Positions 6,298 to 44,218 of a DNA stretch of 55,164 nt are shown one piece after another. The stretch spans positions 1 to 55,164 of the forward strand of contig JACPGL010000028.1 in assembly GCA_016182525.1 (NCBI GenBank), given 5' to 3'. This stretch comes from Candidatus Kerfeldbacteria bacterium. GTDB lineage: Bacteria; Patescibacteriota; Patescibacteriia; JACPL01. The notes under the pieces are model-generated. The model made no database searches. It was not told the DNA's origin and worked only from the letters and a program-made list of their open reading frames with translations. Each line of letters begins with the position of its first letter. Position 1 is the stretch's first letter. A program made the position numbers and the translations under genes.

Positions 6298-6504
6298 ATC
6301 ACCCGCAAAGGATGCTGCGAAGGGATCCCGAGAGCAGCGAGCGGCCATGGTGTCCCGCACGAGATCCTTCGTCCGCCGTTGGCGGACTCAGGATGACAAA
6401 GGCCAGTCGACGGATGACAGTGCGGGACGAGCGAGCGCGAGGCAAAGTGCGGCCGGCTCGGAGGGCCGGCCGACACGGCCCGAAGCAGCACCTTTGCGGG
6501 TGAT
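6298..6504. repeat. 207-bp GC-rich element with 14-bp terminal inverted repeats (family B, copy 1) carrying a nested family-2 unit (6363-6397)
   Basis: ATCACCCGCAAAGG (6298-6311) versus CCTTTGCGGGTGAT (6491-6504); first about 35 nt and last about 60 nt closely match 32884..33032. Confidence 0.75.
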
Positions 6505-13623: not shown

Positions 13624-13796
13624 GTCATCCTGAATCCCGACGTGTCGGGATGAAGGATCTCGAATGTTCTGCGTGAATTTCGGCGTGAATACAGCATTGA
13701 GATCCTTCACTTCCCCTTCACTTCGTTCAGGGCTCGGCTCCCGCCTCGGTTCAGGACGACCCTGCGGGTCGGAGTCTTCGCTTCGCTCAGAATGAC
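13624..13796. repeat. 173-bp composite palindromic element (family-2 units) abutting the stop codon of the giant gene
   Basis: Ends GTCATCCTGA... and ...TCAGAATGAC are inverted; internal units GTCATCCTGAATCCCGACGTGTCGGGATGAAGGATC (13624-13659) and reverse-orientation copies. Confidence 0.7.
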
Positions 13797-21433: not shown

Positions 21434-21626
21434 CTACTCCTCTAAAAGCTTTTCAACAGCTCGACGAAGAGATGGGAGATCCTCTTGAACGGTCTTCCAT
21501 ACCACCTCAAGATCCACACCAAAATACTCATGAGTCAAGATATTCCGCATTCCCACAATATCGTCCCACGGGATATTCTTCGCCTTCAAGGATATGACCG
21601 AGGTATACGCTAGGATCGATTTTCAT
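21434..21626 (-). pseudogene. hepT: Decayed HepT (HEPN/DUF86) toxin: internal deletion plus frameshift
   Basis: Frame 1 from ATG 21626 gives MKIDPSVYLGHILEGEE...; a second frame gives NIPWDDIVGMRNILTHEYFGVDLEVVWKTVQEDLPSLRRAVEKLLEE* with the RxxxxH HEPN motif. Only 64 codons of space versus about 110-140 expected. Confidence 0.7.
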
Positions 21627-21897
21627 AGAGTATCTTCTGATCCTTGAGGATTCGCTGTTTGATGCGTGGATGAAGAGACCGATATGTCACAAGATCAACG
21701 GGCTTCCTGACAAGGCGTTCAAGCTCACGTTGAAGATGAGCCACCTCGAGAAGGGTCGGAGTGATGGAGAATTCCACAAGGAGGTCAATATCACTGCGGG
21801 GAGTTTGCTCTCCTCGTGCAACCGATCCAAAAAGTGCGGCCTTTTTGACCCCACGTCGTTTAAGCAGAGAGATCATTTTTTTCGTTTGAGTTGTCAT
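21610..21897 (-). CDS. mntA: MntA-type minimal nucleotidyltransferase antitoxin
   Basis: 95-aa ORF, FGSVARGEQTPRSDIDLLVEF (GS...DxD NTase motif); 3' end overlaps the hepT remnant start by 17 nt. Confidence 0.85.
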   Translation of the reverse strand: MTTQTKKMISLLKRRGVKKAALFGSVARGEQTPRSDIDLLVEFSITPTLLEVAHLQRELERLVRKPVDLVTYRSLHPRIKQRILKDQKILYENRS

Positions 21898-21933
21898 AAA
21901 ACTATTGTATCAGGATTCATTACAAAATGAAAG

Positions 21934-21960
21934 GGAGAATTGACGGAGCGTCAAGAGTCG
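21934..21960 (+). repeat. 27-bp direct repeat, right copy; contains the -35 of the tsaD promoter
   Basis: GGAGAATTGACGGAGCGTCAAGAGTCG. Confidence 0.85.
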
Positions 21961-21968
21961 CGTATGCT
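21940..21968 (+). promoter_or_regulatory. tsaD promoter TTGACG-17-TATGCT, -10 ends 6 nt before the ATG
   Basis: aaTTGACGgagcgtcaagagtcgcgTATGCTgtcggcATG. Confidence 0.55.
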
Positions 21969-21974
21969 GTCGGC

Positions 21975-23045
21975 ATGATGATCCTCGGGATCGAAACGTC
22001 ATGCGATGAAACGTCGGCTGCCGTGTTGGAGGTGAAACGCGGACGGTTTGATTTGCGGTCACACGTTGTGGCCTCGCAAGTGGCGGTGCACACGAAAACC
22101 GGCGGTGTGGTGCCGGAGGTGGCGGCGCGCGAACACATGGTCACGATCCTGCCGACGATTCAGAAGGCGCTTGAGGGCGTAAAGCCGTCGTCGCTTGATG
22201 CGATTGGCGTGACGAGCGGGCCGGGGCTGCTCACCTCCCTGCTTGTTGGCGTCGAAACCGCAAAGGCACTTTCGTATGCATGGAGTGTGCCGCTCGTGCG
22301 CGTAAATCACATCGAAGGACACATTTACGCGAACTGGCTAGAGCCGACACTCGCAACGAGTGAGAACTCGTCATTGCGAGGAGGCGCGCAGCCGACGAAG
22401 CAATCTGACGCGAAGCGTCATCCTGAGCAATGTCAGGGTGAGCCTGTCGAACCCCTTGTCGAAGGATCTATACAGATCGCCACGTCGTCCCGACAAATGT
22501 CGGGACTCCTCGCGATGACGGATACGCAACTCTTCCCTCTCCTCATTCTTGTCGTCTCTGGCGGGCACACTGAACTCATTTTGATGAAAGGCCACGGACG
22601 ATACACAAAGATCGGCGGCACACAGGATGATGCAGCTGCGGTGCTTTATGAAACGCAAAGCCAGAGATCCTTCGACTCGCTTCGCTCGCTCAGGATGACA
22701 AACGCGCCCTTCAAGATGACAAAAGGGAGAGTCAACAACATTGCCGCGTCATTCCAACAAGCGGTGGTGGATGTGCTTGTTGAAAAGACGATACGGGCAG
22801 CAATAAAGCACAAAGTCAAAGGCGTGTTGCTCTCTGGCGGAGTTGCCGCGAACCGCCTCTTGCGAGAAACGCTTTCGGAACACGTCAAGAACGAACTCCC
22901 CGGCACATTCTACGCCCAACCGCGCCGCGAGTACTGCACCGACAACGCCGCAATGATCGCCGCAGCCGCCTATTTTCACGCTCGCAAAAAGGATTTCACG
23001 CCGTTTCGAAAACTTAAAGCCGACGCCAACTGGGAACTCGTCTAG
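21975..23045 (+). CDS. tsaD: tRNA N6-adenosine threonylcarbamoyltransferase TsaD, interrupted in-frame by repeat elements and lacking the central conserved segment
   Basis: MMILGIETSCDETSAAV, VVPEVAAREH, GPGLLTSLLVG, NHIEGH, VVSGGHTEL, GGVAANRLLR, CTDNAAMIA; the ORF is open throughout. Confidence 0.85.
   Translation: MMILGIETSCDETSAAVLEVKRGRFDLRSHVVASQVAVHTKTGGVVPEVAAREHMVTILPTIQKALEGVKPSSLDAIGVTSGPGLLTSLLVGVETAKALSYAWSVPLVRVNHIEGHIYANWLEPTLATSENSSLRGGAQPTKQSDAKRHPEQCQGEPVEPLVEGSIQIATSSRQMSGLLAMTDTQLFPLLILVVSGGHTELILMKGHGRYTKIGGTQDDAAAVLYETQSQRSFDSLRSLRMTNAPFKMTKGRVNNIAASFQQAVVDVLVEKTIRAAIKHKVKGVLLSGGVAANRLLRETLSEHVKNELPGTFYAQPRREYCTDNAAMIAAAAYFHARKKDFTPFRKLKADANWELV
22370..22519. mobile_element. 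150-bp MITE-like palindromic element inserted in-frame in tsaD
   Basis: Terminal inverted repeats GTCATTGCGAGG (22370-22381) and CCTCGCGATGAC (22508-22519), 11/12 complementary; length is exactly 50 codons; carries family-1 and family-2 modules. Confidence 0.6.
22666..22699. repeat. Half copy of the family-2 element inside tsaD
   Basis: GATCCTTCGACTCGCTTCGCTCGCTCAGGATGAC is the reverse complement of the GTCATCCTGAGC...GAAGGATC module. Confidence 0.7.
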
Positions 23046-23082: not shown

Positions 23083-23313
23083 TTATTTCTTCGCAAACTC
23101 CAAAAACTCCTCCACGGTGAGACCGGCCTGTCGAATAATTGCGCGAAGCGTTCCTTTTTTGATGTCGCGGGCGTGAATTGGGATAACTGGCTGATGCGAT
23201 GATCCGTCTTTGACCATGATGAGATGACTTCCGCGTTGCCGGTATTGTCGATAGCCCATCCGCTCAAAGGCGCGAACCACCTCGCGAGGTTTGAGTGACG
23301 GGAGCACCGGCAT
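23083..23313 (-). CDS. hicA: HicA-family mRNA interferase toxin
   Basis: 76-aa ORF, LKPREVVRAFERMGY...RGSHLIM...IPIHARDIKKGTLRAIIRQAG. Confidence 0.85.
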   Translation of the reverse strand: MPVLPSLKPREVVRAFERMGYRQYRQRGSHLIMVKDGSSHQPVIPIHARDIKKGTLRAIIRQAGLTVEEFLEFAKK

Positions 23314-23316
23314 ATC

Positions 23317-23574
23317 CTAAGCTGGGATCCGATCAAGATCAATCGAGATCTTTCCCTTAAAAAAGTTCGGTTCAATGTCTTCGGGAAACGGCAGCTTTCG
23401 CTCGGCAAGGGTTTCCAGTGTCAGTTCAATCGCCTCTCGCGCGTTCTTTTTTGCTTCTTCTACTGTTTCTCCTTGCGTGTGGCAACCGGGCAGTGCGGGA
23501 ACTTCAACACTAAATCCGCCGCTTTCGTCATCGGGTGTAAAAAGGACCGTATATTGGAGTATTTTGTGAGCCAT
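23317..23574 (-). CDS. hicB: HicB-family antitoxin (short form, no obvious DNA-binding domain)
   Basis: 85-aa ORF, YTVLFTPDDESGGFSVEVPALPGCHTQGETVEEAKKNAREAIEL. Confidence 0.8.
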   Translation of the reverse strand: MAHKILQYTVLFTPDDESGGFSVEVPALPGCHTQGETVEEAKKNAREAIELTLETLAERKLPFPEDIEPNFFKGKISIDLDRIPA

Positions 23575-25045: not shown

Positions 25046-25630
25046 ATGAAAAAAGACTATCTCCTCGATCTGGTACGCTCAAAAAACACCGTTTTCACCA
25101 CCAACGATGTCTCTTTGCTTTGGGGGGAATCAAACATCGCGTTCATCAGAAAAAAAATGTATCGGTACATCAAGGCAGGTAAATTGACCTCCGTTAGAAA
25201 AGGGATCTACGTTAAGGACAAGCAGTATGAGAAGTACGAACTGGCCACAAAAATCTTTACGCCCTCCTACATCAGTTTCGAGACCGTCTTGGCAAGCGCA
25301 GGCGTTACTTTTCAATTTTATAGTCACATTTTTGTCGCCTCGTATTTAACCCGCGAATTGACGATTGATGAACAAATCTATTCGTTCAAGAAAATCAAAG
25401 ACTCCATCCTTACGAACAAAACTGGCATCGAAGTGAGAGATAATTATTTTATCGCCTCACCCGAGAGAGCATTCTTGGATGTTGTCTATCTCAACACCGA
25501 TTACTTCTTTGACAATCTTTCGAATATCAACTGGAAAAAGGTGTCTTCCATTCTCCCGATCTATAACAATAAACGCATGGAAGCAAAAGTGAAAAAATAT
25601 CAGAAAGACACTGAAGAAACTCAAGAATGA
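25046..25630 (+). CDS. abiEi: AbiEi-family antitoxin-like protein (short form)
   Basis: 194-aa ORF; N-terminal wHTH-like ...FTTNDVSLLW...IRKKMYRYIKAGKLTSVRKGIYV; directly upstream of the AbiEii gene. Confidence 0.7.
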   Translation: MKKDYLLDLVRSKNTVFTTNDVSLLWGESNIAFIRKKMYRYIKAGKLTSVRKGIYVKDKQYEKYELATKIFTPSYISFETVLASAGVTFQFYSHIFVASYLTRELTIDEQIYSFKKIKDSILTNKTGIEVRDNYFIASPERAFLDVVYLNTDYFFDNLSNINWKKVSSILPIYNNKRMEAKVKKYQKDTEETQE

Positions 25631-25644
25631 TTTTTTGAAAACGC

Positions 25645-26337
25645 ATGCTCACGATTGAAAAACACAAAAGTATTCTTATCCGGATTCTGAAGGACATCTA
25701 TACCGATAACACGCTCGGCCCTCTTTTAGGATTCAAAGGCGGAACCGCTGCGTTCTTATTCTACGATCTCCCGCGATTTTCGGTCGACCTTGATTTTGAT
25801 TTACTTGATGCGAGTACAGAGGACGAGGTTTTTGAAAAAGTTGGCACGATTCTTTCGGGATATGGAAAAGTCAAGGGGCAAAGAAAAAAATACTACACAT
25901 TATTTTTCGAACTTTCTTATGCCGACGCCGACCAGAACATTAAAGTCGAAATCAGCCGCCGCTCTTTTGAATCAAAATATGAGGTGGTGAACTACTTTGG
26001 TATTTCTATGAACGTGATGGTGAAAGAAGATATGTTTGCAAACAAAATCATGGCTCTCTACGAACGAATGGAACGAGCGAATCGAGACATTTTTGATGTG
26101 TGGTTTTTTCTCCAAAACAACTGGCCAATCAATGTAGAATTGGTTGAGAAGAGAATGGAGCTGCCTTTTCAGGAATTTCTTGCAAAGTGCATTCGAAAAT
26201 TGGAAAAAATCTCAAGCAGGAGTATTTTGGCCGGTATGGGTGAGTTGCTTGATGCCAAACAAAAGGCGTGGGCAAAGGCAAAATTAAAACAAGAGACGCT
26301 TTTTTTGCTCAAGGTGCTGCTTGATCAAAAAAAATAA
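25645..26337 (+). CDS. abiEii: AbiEii/AbiGii-family nucleotidyltransferase toxin
   Basis: 230-aa ORF, LGFKGGTAAFLFYDLPRFSVDLDFDL signature. Confidence 0.85.
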   Translation: MLTIEKHKSILIRILKDIYTDNTLGPLLGFKGGTAAFLFYDLPRFSVDLDFDLLDASTEDEVFEKVGTILSGYGKVKGQRKKYYTLFFELSYADADQNIKVEISRRSFESKYEVVNYFGISMNVMVKEDMFANKIMALYERMERANRDIFDVWFFLQNNWPINVELVEKRMELPFQEFLAKCIRKLEKISSRSILAGMGELLDAKQKAWAKAKLKQETLFLLKVLLDQKK

Positions 26338-26345
26338 TTCTCTCT

Positions 26346-29006
26346 ATGAACGACCTTCCAAAAGCATACGATCCGAAAAACGTCGAGGATGATATCTCAA
26401 GAGCATGGGAAGCATCTGGCTATTTCAACCCAGACACGTTACCCATTCCCAAAAATGCTGAAGCGTTTAGTATTGTACTCCCGCCGCCCACTGTCACCAG
26501 CACACTCCATCTTGGCCACGCGATGTATGTGATTGAAGACGTGATGATTCGCCACGCGCGGATGCAAGGGAAACGCACGCTCTGGCTCCCCGGAATGGAT
26601 CATGCCGCGATCGCCACGCAAAACAAAGTGGAAAGAATCGTATGGGATAAAGAGAAAAAAACGCGTCACGATCTTGGCCGCGAGGAACTTATACGGCGAA
26701 TTGATGCGTTCGTTGCCGACTCTCGCTCCACCATCACAAACCAACTTAAGAAAATGGGATTCTCGCTTGATTGGTCGCGCGAGCGCTTTACGCTCGACCC
26801 GGCGATCTCTCGCGCCGTGCAAAAAATGTTCGTGGACATGCACACAGATGGATTGATCTACCGCGGCTCGCGCATTGTGAACTGGTGCCCGCGCTGCCAA
26901 TCCACCTTGGCCGACGATGAAGTGGAATACAAAGAGGAGCGAACACCTTTCTATTATTTTAAGTACGGCCCGTTCTCTATTGCAACGGTGCGGCCCGAAA
27001 CGAAAATCGGCGACAAGGTGGTGATCGTGCACCCGAAAGACAAACGCTACACGAAATATCACGGCAAAACATTTCCATTGCCGTGGATTGATGGAGATAT
27101 TGAAGCGCGCGTGATCGCCGATGAAGCATCGGATCCTGAACTTGGCTCTGGCGCGATGACCATCACCCCTGCACACAGCTTTGTGGATTTTGAACTCGCA
27201 AAAAAATACGGCATCGAAATTGAAAACATCATTGGGCAAGATGGACGCCTCACAAACGCGGCTGGAAAATACGCCGGTCTCACGACGCAAGAGGCGAGAA
27301 AAAAGTTTGTTGAAATTCTCCAAAAAAAAGGCCTTGTCGAGAAAATTGACGAAAACTACACACACAATCTCACGGTCTGTTACCGCTGCGGCACGGCCGT
27401 TGAACCGCTTGTAAGCCCGCAGTGGTTTGTGGACGTGAACAAACCTGTCGTGACATGGAAGGGCGTAAAAAAAAGTCTGAAAGACGTGGCGATCGAGGTC
27501 GTGAAATCCGGCGACATCGAAATCATCCCTGACCGATTCGAAAAAACGTATTTTCAATGGATAGAGAATCTCCACGACTGGTGCATCTCGCGGCAGTTGT
27601 GGTATGGCCATCGTATCCCGGTGTGGTATTGCGTTGGCGACGAACATGAAGGCGCGGTGTGCAAACTGGAATGCCGGCAGCCGGTCGTGCAGACTGACCA
27701 TCCTATAGAATGCCGCTACTGCGGCTCAAAAAATCTTCGCCAAGATCCTGACACGCTCGACACGTGGTTCTCAAGCGGGATGTGGACGTTCACAACGCTC
27801 GGCTGGCCGGAGAAAACACGCGACCTGAAAACATTTCACCCGACAAACGTGCTCGAAACCGGCTACGACATTTTGTTCTTTTGGGTGGCGCGCATGATTC
27901 TCATGACAACGTATGCGACCGGCGAGGTTCCCTTCCGCACGGTGTACTTGCACGGGTTAGTGCGCGACAAGGAAGGCCGCAAGATGTCGAAGTCGCTCGG
28001 CAATATCATTGACCCGCTCGACATGTCGGCAAAGTACGGCACCGATGCGTTGCGGCTTGCGCTCATGACCGGAACGACTCCGGGGAATGACGTGAACTTG
28101 TACGAAGAAAAAATCGCCGGTTACCGAAATTTTGTGAATAAATTTTGGAACATCGCGCGGTTTATCCTGACCACTGTTGAGACACCACGCTACGTAGACA
28201 CCATGCCGACACTCGCGACAGATGCCGATCGTTGGATCATCTCGCGCCTGCACGAAACGACGAGAGGCGTGAACAAACTCATGGATAAATATCAGTATGG
28301 GTTGGCTATTGAAAAGCTCTATCGCTTCACGTGGAACGACTTGGCCGACTGGTACCTCGAAATCGCGAAAGTGGAACGCCCCGTCATTGCGAGCGAAGCG
28401 AAGCAATCCCCTCTCCTCCTCTTCATTCTCCAAAACCTCCTCAAACTCTGGCACCCGTACGCGCCGTTCATTACCGAGCATGTGTACCAAATGCTCAATG
28501 GGCATCCAAAAAATATGCTCATGATCGAAACATGGCCGAACGAGAAAACCACACAGACCACATTCGCGCATGAATCAGAGCGAGCAATCTTGGCCATGCA
28601 AGACATCGTGAATGCGATCCGCGAAAAACGGTCGTGGCTTGCCATCCCCTACACAACAACACTCGAACTCTCAGGCAAGATGGGAAAAGCAAAGGGGCTC
28701 GAACATCTCATCGAGCATTTCGGCAAGGTGAAGATGGTGAAGAAGCCACAAGGAAAAACGCTCGCGCTCACGAATGGCTTATCCCTTTCCGGATTTACTG
28801 GCGTAAACTTTGAAAAAGAACACGCCAAAACCAAAAAGGAACTCAAGAATCTCGAAGGTTATATCACTGGCCTCGCAAAAAAACTCGCGAACGAAAAATT
28901 CACCTCCAACGCCCCGAAAAACATCATCGAACAAGAACGCGCCAAACTCGAAGCTGCCACCGAACGCGTAAAAGACTTGAAAAATAAACTGAAGCAACTC
29001 ACGTAA
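26346..29006 (+). CDS. valS: Valine--tRNA ligase
   Basis: 886-aa ORF; HIGH-type PPPTVTSTLHLGHAM, KMSKS RKMSKSLGN, C-terminal coiled coil. Confidence 0.97.
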   Translation: MNDLPKAYDPKNVEDDISRAWEASGYFNPDTLPIPKNAEAFSIVLPPPTVTSTLHLGHAMYVIEDVMIRHARMQGKRTLWLPGMDHAAIATQNKVERIVWDKEKKTRHDLGREELIRRIDAFVADSRSTITNQLKKMGFSLDWSRERFTLDPAISRAVQKMFVDMHTDGLIYRGSRIVNWCPRCQSTLADDEVEYKEERTPFYYFKYGPFSIATVRPETKIGDKVVIVHPKDKRYTKYHGKTFPLPWIDGDIEARVIADEASDPELGSGAMTITPAHSFVDFELAKKYGIEIENIIGQDGRLTNAAGKYAGLTTQEARKKFVEILQKKGLVEKIDENYTHNLTVCYRCGTAVEPLVSPQWFVDVNKPVVTWKGVKKSLKDVAIEVVKSGDIEIIPDRFEKTYFQWIENLHDWCISRQLWYGHRIPVWYCVGDEHEGAVCKLECRQPVVQTDHPIECRYCGSKNLRQDPDTLDTWFSSGMWTFTTLGWPEKTRDLKTFHPTNVLETGYDILFFWVARMILMTTYATGEVPFRTVYLHGLVRDKEGRKMSKSLGNIIDPLDMSAKYGTDALRLALMTGTTPGNDVNLYEEKIAGYRNFVNKFWNIARFILTTVETPRYVDTMPTLATDADRWIISRLHETTRGVNKLMDKYQYGLAIEKLYRFTWNDLADWYLEIAKVERPVIASEAKQSPLLLFILQNLLKLWHPYAPFITEHVYQMLNGHPKNMLMIETWPNEKTTQTTFAHESERAILAMQDIVNAIREKRSWLAIPYTTTLELSGKMGKAKGLEHLIEHFGKVKMVKKPQGKTLALTNGLSLSGFTGVNFEKEHAKTKKELKNLEGYITGLAKKLANEKFTSNAPKNIIEQERAKLEAATERVKDLKNKLKQLT
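28383..28408. repeat. Family-1 repeat module inside valS, in-frame (translated VIASEAKQS)
   Basis: GTCATTGCGAGCGAAGCGAAGCAATC, same module as 29036, 22370 and 41540/41595. Confidence 0.7.
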
Positions 29007-29035
29007 CCATTCGAGGGCGAAGTTGCTCAAAATAG

Positions 29036-29067
29036 TCATTGCGAGGAACGAAGTGACGAAGCAATCT
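29036..29067. repeat. Family-1 repeat module 30 nt downstream of the valS stop
   Basis: GTCATTGCGAGGAACGAAGTGACGAAGCAATC. Confidence 0.7.
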
Positions 29068-34389: not shown

Positions 34390-34869
34390 ATGTCTGTCTC
34401 GATCACCCAATCTGCGAAGGAAACACAAAAACTCGCTGCGAAACTGGCACAAAACTGCCGCGGCGGGGAGGTGTTTTGCCTGTCGGGCGAGCTTGGCGCC
34501 GGAAAAACCACCTTTGTGCAAGGATTTGCAAAAGCCCTCGGGATCGCGGCTGCCATCACCAGCCCGACGTTTGTCTTGGAGAAAATCTACCCCATCCGCA
34601 CTCACTCTACGGTGACGCGGCTTGTGCATGTCGATGCCTACCGCATCGGCACCGACGCCACTCCGCCGCTCGACCTCACCGATCACCTCAATGACCCACA
34701 CACGATCGTTCTCATCGAATGGCCTGACCACCTCTCCTCCCTTCTCCAAAATGTTGAGTATAATAATGTAACTTTTCGGGTTGTTGATCCCGGTGAAAGA
34801 GAAATTGAGATAAAGGAATACTACGGACAGTGGCGGGTGGCAGCGGGAAAGCGGTCACACCGAGCGTAG
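34390..34869 (+). CDS. tsaE: tRNA t6A biosynthesis ATPase TsaE
   Basis: 159-aa ORF, Walker A GELGAGKTTFVQG, SPTF, HVDAYR; the C-terminal about 15 aa run into a GC-rich repeat. Confidence 0.85.
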   Translation: MSVSITQSAKETQKLAAKLAQNCRGGEVFCLSGELGAGKTTFVQGFAKALGIAAAITSPTFVLEKIYPIRTHSTVTRLVHVDAYRIGTDATPPLDLTDHLNDPHTIVLIEWPDHLSSLLQNVEYNNVTFRVVDPGEREIEIKEYYGQWRVAAGKRSHRA

Positions 34870-39406: not shown

Positions 39407-40144
39407 TTACTTTTTCGGGGGTGGGGTCACTTCCCACAACATTTCGAAAATCGACCCAAAAATATCCACCATGGCCGGGATGGCGATGACAACGGCAAGA
39501 GATGCAAACTCTGGGCTAACAACCAGGATCTTGTCATCAAAAATATCGATTGTGCTACGGAATCCATAGGTTGAGGGGAGATAGCGATACTCTCGTCGGA
39601 GGCGAGGATCTGTTGGATTGATCTCTTTGGAATCTGCACTTAACAAAAGCCGGGTCGAAATCCGTACTGCGCCACGGTCTTTGCGGAATTGCACGAAAAA
39701 CGCTGGATCAATCCCCTCCCATCCTTTTGCGCTACTAATAATCCGATAGGACCGACCTTTGTACTCAATGAGAATTCCACGATAGAACTCTTGGAGCTCG
39801 TCTTTGGTTTCGATAAATCGAAGACCGAAATCGCGTGTTTCGCGCTTTTCAAAAGATTCGAGCACAGGGATGATGGTCGTAAAGGCATCGAGCTTTCTCT
39901 CAAACAGCCCGGCAACGCGAGCGGGTTTTTGCGCATAGTAAAACTGCTGCGACTTGCGGTAATACATCGTCACAAATCCTTTTCGTGAAAGCGATTTGAG
40001 AATCGGATAGACCGTGGTGCGCTTCAGGCCGGTCTCTCGCGCTACTCGACTTGCTCGCGACCCGCCGATTTTGAGCAGTGCAAGATAGATTCGCGCCTCC
40101 TGCTCCGAAAGTCCAAGACTTTCAAGTATTTTGCTATTCTTCAT
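39407..40144 (-). CDS. TrmB-family transcriptional regulator
   Basis: LGLSEQEARIYLALLKIGGSRASRVARETGLKRTTVYPILKSLSRKGFV. Confidence 0.8.
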   Translation of the reverse strand: MKNSKILESLGLSEQEARIYLALLKIGGSRASRVARETGLKRTTVYPILKSLSRKGFVTMYYRKSQQFYYAQKPARVAGLFERKLDAFTTIIPVLESFEKRETRDFGLRFIETKDELQEFYRGILIEYKGRSYRIISSAKGWEGIDPAFFVQFRKDRGAVRISTRLLLSADSKEINPTDPRLRREYRYLPSTYGFRSTIDIFDDKILVVSPEFASLAVVIAIPAMVDIFGSIFEMLWEVTPPPKK

Positions 40145-41539: not shown

Positions 41540-41627
41540 GTCACTCGCGAGTCCCGAAGGGGCGAAGCAATCTATCGTTTCTCTAACAAACAAGAGATTG
41601 CTTCGTCGCTTCGCTCCTCGCAATGAC
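41540..41627. repeat. Complete 88-bp family-1 palindromic element (both arms)
   Basis: GTCACTCGCGAGTCCCGAAGGGGCGAAGCAATCT...AGATTGCTTCGTCGCTTCGCTCCTCGCAATGAC; flanks CTGTAGAAA/TTTCTACAG extend the palindrome. Confidence 0.75.
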
Positions 41628-43366: not shown

Positions 43367-44218
43367 ATGTTTCTACGCAAACACTTCTCACTCGACGATC
43401 GCATTCTTGCCCATCTCCAGCATGGGTCGATGATTATTCTCGATCTCATAGCCACGATCAAACGCGAGCGGCCAGGCACCACAAAACAGGGCGTATATGC
43501 TGCGCTTCGGATTTTAAAAAAAGAAGAGGTCGTTGTGCTTCATGCCGGACGTGCTTCGTTGAATGCCGCGTGGCTCACGAACGTCCATCGCTACTTCACC
43601 ATTGCCGAGCACTATTACTTTCAAAAAAATGTGGGCGCTGGACACTTTGCCAATTTGCGCGAGGGAGAAAAGATTCAATACACATTCACCAGTCCTCTCG
43701 TTGCGGACACGTTTTGGATTCATGCACTCTTTATTCTTATTGAGACCACGCCGCCCGGTGCACACTTCATTGCGTACGACCCGCACTGCTGGTTCTTTTT
43801 GGCACACGCGGAAAGTGAGCGTGGATTTGTTCGATTTGCTCGCGTGCACAAACGGCTGTACCTCGTGAGTGTCGGCGCTCGCACTCCTCTTGATCGCCTG
43901 GTCGCGCGCGAAGTAGATGGAACGCACAGTCAGTACGCAATGCTCACTCCTGCTCCCTTCCCTTCAACGCGATATATCAATATCATTGGAGACTATGTGA
44001 TTGACGTGTCACTTGAGAAACGGGTTGCCGATGCGATGGATGCGTTTTACACGCGGACGCGAGAATGGACGCCGGACGTGGGAAGAGCATTACGCCATCT
44101 TGTTGAAGAACGCGGACGAACAAAGCTTGTCATTTCGCGCAACGCCAAAAAAGCCGAGCAACTCCGCCGCAAATTCCTCAAATCTTTTTATATTCCAAAA
44201 GAGATCAACGTAAACTGA
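43367..44218 (+). CDS. wHTH protein, divergent TrmB-like paralogue
   Basis: 283-aa ORF; N-terminal wHTH-like ILDLIATIKRERPGTTKQGVYAALRILKKEEVV; C-terminal YINIIGDYVIDV parallels VDIFGDYVVTF in 46359..47111. Confidence 0.6.
   Translation: MFLRKHFSLDDRILAHLQHGSMIILDLIATIKRERPGTTKQGVYAALRILKKEEVVVLHAGRASLNAAWLTNVHRYFTIAEHYYFQKNVGAGHFANLREGEKIQYTFTSPLVADTFWIHALFILIETTPPGAHFIAYDPHCWFFLAHAESERGFVRFARVHKRLYLVSVGARTPLDRLVAREVDGTHSQYAMLTPAPFPSTRYINIIGDYVIDVSLEKRVADAMDAFYTRTREWTPDVGRALRHLVEERGRTKLVISRNAKKAEQLRRKFLKSFYIPKEINVN

Follow-up and report, generated by a model that had tools for sequence, protein, structure and literature searches.

An in-frame gap of 162 bp in a Patescibacteria tsaD gene that carries intragenic hairpin repeats

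The tsaD gene on a contig of a Candidatus Kerfeldbacteria bacterium (JACPGL010000028.1; the 55,164 nt analysed here are called the window) lacks exactly 162 nt, or 54 codons, relative to both of its closest relatives, and its reading frame stays open. On balance, we read it as a recent, probably catalytically dead deletion allele that also contains independent, older hairpin repeats, which did not cause the loss. A young dead allele is the most likely account, an assembly error is less likely, and a new kind of enzyme is not what the data describe. The event itself is ordinary: a known enzyme has lost an in-frame segment beside intragenic hairpin repeats of a known type, in an uncommon place.

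The segment missing from TsaD

The gene product (Table 1) belongs to the TsaD/Kae1/Qri7 family of tRNA A37 threonylcarbamoyltransferases (PF00814, TIGR03723). It scores 209 bits against PF00814 (cutoff 24.8) and 221.8 bits against TIGR00329 (cutoff 207.8), a PDB sequence search returned TsaD chains as top matches, and bacterial TsaD gives its best matches in both sequence and structure. The N-lobe is fully conserved, and the family motifs GIETSCDET, HIEGH, SGGHT, GGVAAN and CTDNAAM are kept. HIEGH and CTDNAAM fall in invariant columns and supply the His-x3-His and C-terminal Asp pattern of the metal ligands, which are H111, H115 and D300 in E. coli TsaD (PMC7913687). The score against the equivalog model TIGR03723, however, is 260 bits, below the cutoff of 296.1, the PF00814 match is broken into two stretches, and the profile matches as a whole are fragmented into two to three. 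The alignment breaks at the site where an earlier, sequence-only reading of this DNA had suspected a gap, and residues 168–227 of T. maritima TsaD have no aligned counterpart in the window protein in the PDB alignment. Among GTDB species genomes the closest tsaD, in a Komeilibacteria MAG, is 41% identical; the close relatives used for comparison were P0003 (338 aa, Logan SRR22388054) and P0002 (429 aa, Logan SRR32573209), aligned with the window TsaD and ten other proteins. At the nucleotide level, the window was compared with relatives L001 and L002.

Table 1. Coordinates of the features discussed (window positions unless another sequence is named)
Feature	Position	Strand	Description
tsaD ORF	21927..23045	+	372 aa from first ATG; ORF list
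tsaD, gene caller's version (P0001)	starts 21975	+	356 aa
Deletion junction	22637..22638	+	GATGATGCAGCT/GCGGTGCTTTATGAA (DDAA/AVLYE); DNA alignment with L001 and L002
REP1	22370..22406	+	GTCATTGCGAGG...GAAGCAATCT; first of three in-frame copies in the HIEGH–SGGHT loop
REP2	22417..22469	+	GTCATCCTGAGC-29 nt-GTCGAAGGATCT; long-loop copy, translated RHPEQCQGEPVEPLVEGS
REP3	22474..22519	-	strong inner hairpin GTCATCGCGAGG...GGCGATCT
REP4	22665..22699	-	complete short-loop copy GTCATCCTGAGC-GAGCGAAGCGA-GTCGAAGGATCT (minus strand), 35 nt
Intergenic repeat copy	6363-6398	-	
Intergenic repeat copy	13624-13660	+	
Intergenic repeat copy	29035-29067	+	
Intergenic repeat copy	41595-41627	-	
valS	26346-29006	+	
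In-frame repeat copy in valS	28383-28409		peptide PVIASEAKQS, anticodon-binding domain
tsaE	34390..34869	+	partner ATPase of the t6A transfer complex, apparently intact; PF02367, 110.5 bits (cutoff 26.6)
HepT-like toxin, truncated	21434-21589	-	51 aa; profile positions 75-120 of 120
MNT nucleotidyltransferase, intact	21610-21897	-	adjoins HepT
Toxin–antitoxin region	21434-21897		
Toxin–antitoxin region	23083-23574		
Toxin–antitoxin region	25046-26337		
Toxin–antitoxin region	44205-44906		
TrmB-type regulator	39407-40144	-	
TrmB-type regulator	46359-47111	+	
TrmB-type regulator	50104-50928	-	
GTCAT-NNN-GA-type repeat	L007 20247-20325		
GTCAT-NNN-GA-type repeat	L025 7754-7904		
GTCAT-NNN-GA-type repeat	L096 6386-6446		
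GTCAT-NNN-GA-type repeat	L098/L099 6755-6786		
Same-strain contig L167	21404-22425		SRR12113385; 100% identity
Same-strain contig L165	22672-23738		SRR12113385; 100% identity
Same-strain contig L163	22710-27209		SRR12113422; 99.96% identity
Same-strain contig L166	22995-24017		SRR12113419; 100% identity

The DNA alignment contains a clean gap of 162 columns: L001 and L002 each hold 162 nt between the points homologous to the junction, rather than the 100–120 nt that had been estimated from the sequence. The window protein reads DDAA-AVLYETQSQRSFDSLRSLRMTNAPFKMTKGRVNN-IAASFQ, which leaves 34 residues where relatives have about 72 and bears out the earlier remark that about 34 residues, with none of the conserved motifs, separate these two landmarks. 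In the protein alignment AVLYE, which directly follows FSFSGLKT in every relative, comes straight after DDAA in the window. The lost part corresponds to G163–T216 of E. coli TsaD and carries GEAFDK with Asp167, YPGGP and FSFSGLKT; these 54 residues, present in all other homologues examined, account for 15 of the 63 columns that are invariant when 81 sequences are aligned. The combined absence of GEAFDK, YPGG and FSFSGLK sets the window protein apart from all others of the 120 best homologues. Its DDAA and GGVAAN motifs are 66 residues apart; in 101 others the spacing is 101–152. A recognised short TsaD subfamily had been considered as an innocent explanation; none sharing the gap was found among the homologues listed, the best 120 of which were checked motif by motif. 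Nor did tblastn, with the missing 54 aa and an intact relative as queries, find a second tsaD, a tsaB or a displaced copy of the lost segment in the 55 kb. With the central segment gone and no second copy in the window, the only tsaD present, although an open frame, is very probably compromised, as had been proposed as one alternative. MAFFT paired the repeat-encoded SFDSLRSL with FSFSGLKT; this match was rejected as chance, since the DNA alignment identifies the stretch as repeat sequence.

An AlphaFold model of an intact relative (pLDDT 96) places a helix (165–175), a second helix (182–190), a long loop with helix 203–206 and the start of helix 215–225 in the segment. Judged from this model, the segment comprises both the TsaD-specific nucleotide-binding insert and the helix that opens the C-terminal ASKHA lobe. 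The AF2 model of the window protein, a type of model that cannot show stability, has a pLDDT of 81.8, with values of 53–79 around the junction and below 50 in both repeat-encoded stretches (residues 130–175 and 228–243). The first C-lobe helix is missing from it, and because the in-frame deletion runs from the start of one helix to the middle of another, the model draws a continuous chimeric helix. It matches TsaD structures with TM 0.70–0.77 (E 1e-24), and TsaB (YeaZ) appears at rank 49. In E. coli TsaD Asp167 is a ribose ligand: its carboxylate hydrogen-bonds the sugar hydroxyls of BK951, a TC-AMP mimic, and likewise binds those of ATPgammaS (PMC7913687). A protein that has lost this residue together with the YPGG loop and the initial helix of the C-lobe would not be expected to bind TC-AMP productively. 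The deletion product keeps the N-lobe, the metal ligands and GGVAAN/CTDNAAM; from structure and conservation, it would be unable to hold TC-AMP normally and should be catalytically dead.

The codons that remain give no sign of relaxed constraint: dN/dS is about 0.06 over the 268 that align reliably, and lineage-specific amino-acid changes number 7 in the window, 14 in L001 and 20 in L002; none of those in the window falls at a column conserved in 77 outgroups when the misaligned deletion zone is set aside. The window and L002 are separated by a dS above 1. These values argue that tsaD has not been pseudogene-like for any appreciable time. Combined with an apparently intact tsaE 11 kb away (match to PF02367 profile positions 2–118 of 128), they indicate that the deletion is young. 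We propose that a Patescibacteria tsaD, well preserved in all other respects, has recently lost 162 bp from its interior in one simple in-frame deletion, and that the allele is probably a strain-level variant within the population sampled, or else marks the onset of pseudogenisation. In E. coli tsaD is essential, and cells die when either tsaC or tsaD is depleted (PMC9654439), so fixation of a null allele would be unexpected if there were neither a further copy nor an intact allele elsewhere.

Breakpoints and repeats within tsaD

Both breakpoints lie in unique sequence, neither within nor adjoining a repeat copy. Microhomology between them amounts to at most 1–3 nt: a single G, or CTG should the ancestral sequence have been GCAGCTGGC. 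Direct repeats flanking the homologous points were not found in L001 and L002, where the two breakpoint regions share at most 5 nt (L001) or an out-of-register 10-mer (L002). No k-mer of at least 15 nt from 22300–22760 recurs in the window. There is thus no sequence basis for repeat recombination or for a repeat-driven assembly collapse, the two routes put forward by the sequence-only reading. The pattern instead points to a simple illegitimate deletion, which may have arisen by illegitimate recombination or by replication slippage with minimal microhomology.

The repeat closest to the junction, REP4, starts 27 nt downstream of it, and the intervening 27 nt are ordinary tsaD sequence (AVLYE...). 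The idea that the segment had been replaced by this repeat therefore does not hold: the gap is clean and AVLYE is the normal continuation of the gene. The element had also been described as a reverse-orientation half copy at 22666–22699; its minus orientation stands, but the copy is complete, sharing a 12-nt head and an 11-nt tail with REP2 around a centre of 11 instead of 29 nt. REP4 is translated in frame as RSFDSLRSLRMT within a 20-residue insert, TQSQRSFDSLRSLRMTNAPF (22653–22712), in the variable loop after AVLYE where P0003 has VRDK, and by itself forms a weak hairpin (−2.4 kcal/mol, z +0.95). L002 has a homologous, longer and partly degenerate long-loop copy at this loop, oriented alike (local alignment score 56, shuffle maximum 32), together with an intact central segment. 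Given the dS above 1 between the two lineages, the repeat in this loop is old and has been tolerated by a functional tsaD.

The other three copies make up an insert at 22347–22529, which adds ~58 residues between HIEGH and SGGHT and, in the DNA alignment, is absent from L001 and partly common to L002. REP3 is a strong hairpin (−13.5 kcal/mol, z −3.6). In Patescibacteria TsaD the HxEGH–SGGHT loop is a hot spot for insertions: it has at least 25 residues in 44 of 102 homologues (mode 20), the 78 residues of the window being the longest when compared with homologues P0002–P0120. Many of the loop peptides look repeat-encoded, for example HSEERSDEESR...SFASLRMT and MRGGNDN. REP4 and the three copies in the other loop are in-frame insertions in permissive surface loops, independent of the deletion and much older, and the short hairpin repeat near the junction is harmless. 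That the repeats caused the loss, either through recombination between copies or through replacement of the segment on insertion, is very improbable. REP4 is close to the junction and the four copies in tsaD make the nearby DNA repeat-rich, which would favour such a mechanism, but neither breakpoint touches a copy, the DNA between junction and REP4 is ordinary tsaD, and in L002 a repeat at this very loop coexists with the complete segment.

The repeat family and the genomic neighbourhood

The strict pattern TCAT-NNN-GA...GA(A)-N'N'N'-AT has eight matches in the window, compared with 0.11 in shuffles, and two degenerate copies occur in addition. All copies read GTC-AT-NNN ... N'N'N'-AT with a covarying 3-nt core (TGC/GCA, CCT/AGG, CGC/GCG); in ten copies the base before GTC is C four times, T five times and A once. 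A 5-bp outer stem and a GA/GA internal loop are followed by an inner stem of 7–8 bp in three copies and by an unstructured centre of 11–29 nt in the remainder, and the tail is CT or CC. Three copies are strong hairpins (z about −4), whereas the short-loop copies, REP4 included, are not. The intergenic copies lie 29–140 nt past the stop codons of rny, a 1723-aa FG-GAP gene, valS and a C39-like peptidase gene. Two of them (6363–6398 and 13624–13660) are strong hairpins with a 7-bp inner stem, and a terminator or mRNA-end role would suit such structures past stop codons. The in-frame valS copy sits at an offset of 2038 nt, identical to that of a copy in L002 valS (L002 6838–6868), and the two centres differ by 6 nt, which makes the repeat orthologous, with remodelling in multiples of three. 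In L002 valS a second, reverse-oriented copy adjoins the first.

Repeats of the same type, GTCAT-NNN-GA...GAA-N'N'N'-ATC, are found in loci from Chloroflexia and Armatimonadota MAGs and in other Patescibacteria tsaD genes (Table 1), and this (C/T)GTC-AT family thus spans phyla. An Rfam scan of the whole window at gathering thresholds returned two tRNAs and no family for the repeat; full-text searches with the repeat sequences gave unrelated primers only, a literature search for REP elements in Patescibacteria found nothing on the subject, and the supplements of the paper on CGTC-tagged REPs (PMC3733652) contain no sequence matching the window repeat. The CGTC-tagged REPs, of which Rickettsia RPE-4 and RPE-6 and the Neisseria element dRS3 are examples (Di Nocera et al. 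2013), have a CGTC/TGTC head, a stem of 8–9 bp, a loop of 4–5 nt and a CCA tail, and lie mostly just downstream of ORFs, with some in frame within genes for known proteins (PMC3733652). The window repeats share the unpaired CGTC/TGTC head, a stem opening with A-T and T-A pairs and a short unpaired tail, as well as the dispersed placement, mainly just 3' of ORFs and in some cases intragenic (here tsaD and valS). They differ in the stem, which has 5 bp, the GA/GA loop and then a variable inner hairpin or an 11–29 nt centre and so departs from the CGTC-tagged definition, in the CT or CC tail in place of CCA, and in their host, as Patescibacteria lie outside the Di Nocera survey (PMC3733652).

Rickettsia palindromic elements (RPEs) are like the window repeats in encoding in-frame peptides in permissive loops of essential genes (here tsaD and valS) and in that the encoded peptides persist across speciation. 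RPE-1 is about 100–150 nt in size, whereas the window elements are much shorter (about 25–53 nt) and belong to a different host lineage. In their sequence features, the window repeats resemble elements of the CGTC-tagged REP or Rickettsia RPE type.

The window is a stretch of Patescibacteria (CPR) housekeeping genes, encoding IF-2, RNase Y, ClpP, ValS, ArgRS, RibBA, TsaE and a type IV pilus ATPase, along with several toxin–antitoxin pairs. The gene order tsaD, ribBA, valS is common to the window and L002; between tsaD and ribBA, L002 has a single 253-aa gene where the window has hicAB. Toxin–antitoxin modules are dense near tsaD (MNT/HepT, HicA/HicB and an AbiEii toxin after a 194-aa ORF), with a second AbiEii-like gene further on. 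The HepT-like toxin, about 340 nt upstream of tsaD, has lost about 70 N-terminal residues and is a second truncated gene, and just 20 nt separate the HepT and MNT ORFs; the HepT truncation shows deletional decay in the tsaD neighbourhood and so counts in favour of a genuine tsaD deletion. Three paralogous TrmB-type winged-helix regulators of about 245–274 aa lie within 12 kb.

Alternative readings and what the gap would mean

The deletion rests on one assembled contig, and no same-strain contig replicates the junction. The strain is present in three other Logan assemblies, none of which has a contig spanning the junction, and the stretch 22426–22671 that holds it is on none of the same-strain contigs retrieved. 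These contigs end within or just past repeat copies (9 nt into REP2, 7 nt into REP4), breaks that could stem from low coverage, from heterogeneity of the strain or from repeats in other parts of the genome. The start of one contig at 22672 was considered as a k=31 branch at the junction and dropped, being offset from it by 34 nt. It is accordingly a serious though lesser possibility that the true tsaD is intact and that the gap is an artefact or an unrepresentative minority variant, introduced in assembly or consensus building, for example when a read is chimeric or derives from amplification, or when a graph bubble is resolved in favour of a rare deletion variant. An artefact would likewise leave tsaD entirely free of decay, as observed, with fewer lineage-specific changes than either L001 or L002; the intact tsaE and the essentiality of tsaD in E. 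coli (PMC9654439) are in line with this, the fragmentation of same-strain assemblies between 22425 and 22672 hints at a difficult or heterogeneous region, and the homologue search and exact look-up found the deletion allele in no other public assembly. Against it, the breakpoints share no k-mers that could collapse a de Bruijn graph (microhomology of 1–3 nt at most), no repeat of 15 nt or longer from the region recurs in the window, and a chimera of two organisms is contradicted by flanks that belong to the same gene within the synteny shared with L002. Protein searches found no fragment of an intact allele from the same strain: queries with a reconstructed intact centre gave best identities of 61% and 77% and no same-strain fragment with or without the 54 residues, although these searches apparently list nothing longer than about 1.75 times the query and may miss short fragments. 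The exact-protein look-up of P0001 gave no record, nor did that of MNT from its first ATG; in JGI metagenomes a clade DNA pattern had 0 matches, and a protein-pattern scan reached 57% identity at best, with no near-identical contig.

The deletion protein might alternatively be a functional short variant, kept as a non-catalytic scaffold or regulator like TsaB while a second tsaD elsewhere provides catalysis. TsaB (YeaZ) is a TsaD paralogue with the ASKHA fold and a truncated C-terminal lobe that binds neither nucleotide nor metal (PMC9654439); the window protein likewise has a reduced C-lobe and is predicted to have no competent nucleotide site. The in-frame loss from a helix start into the middle of another helix, which the model renders as one continuous chimeric helix, and the strong constraint on the retained parts would both fit such a role. 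That constraint, however, stems from a history in common with intact relatives (dS above 1) and is uninformative about the time since the deletion, and one third of random deletions would be in frame. Unlike TsaB, the protein retains the metal ligands and all TsaD-specific motifs outside the gap, without TsaB-like drift; it scores 59.9 against the TsaB profile TIGR03725, below the cutoff of 69.3, its model is structurally far closer to TsaD than to YeaZ, and no homologue examined shares the deletion. We give this reading little credence and retain that of a young, probably dead deletion allele.

A real and fixed deletion would leave this bacterium without a working t6A transferase despite its tsaE; it would be a rare case of a reduced genome naturally losing a tRNA modification that is nearly universal. 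Were the scaffold reading true, a TsaB-like scaffold would have emerged from TsaD by one clean in-frame loss of the nucleotide-binding insert. As a young null allele or an artefact is more likely, the finding matters mainly for annotation: subfamily models would call the ORF tsaD, and a flag marking it as defective is warranted. Of more general use are the short (C/T)GTC-AT hairpin repeats, which inflate and obscure protein alignments and break short-read assemblies; in Patescibacteria they occupy permissive loops of the essential genes tsaD and valS, keep the reading frame and persist across speciation.
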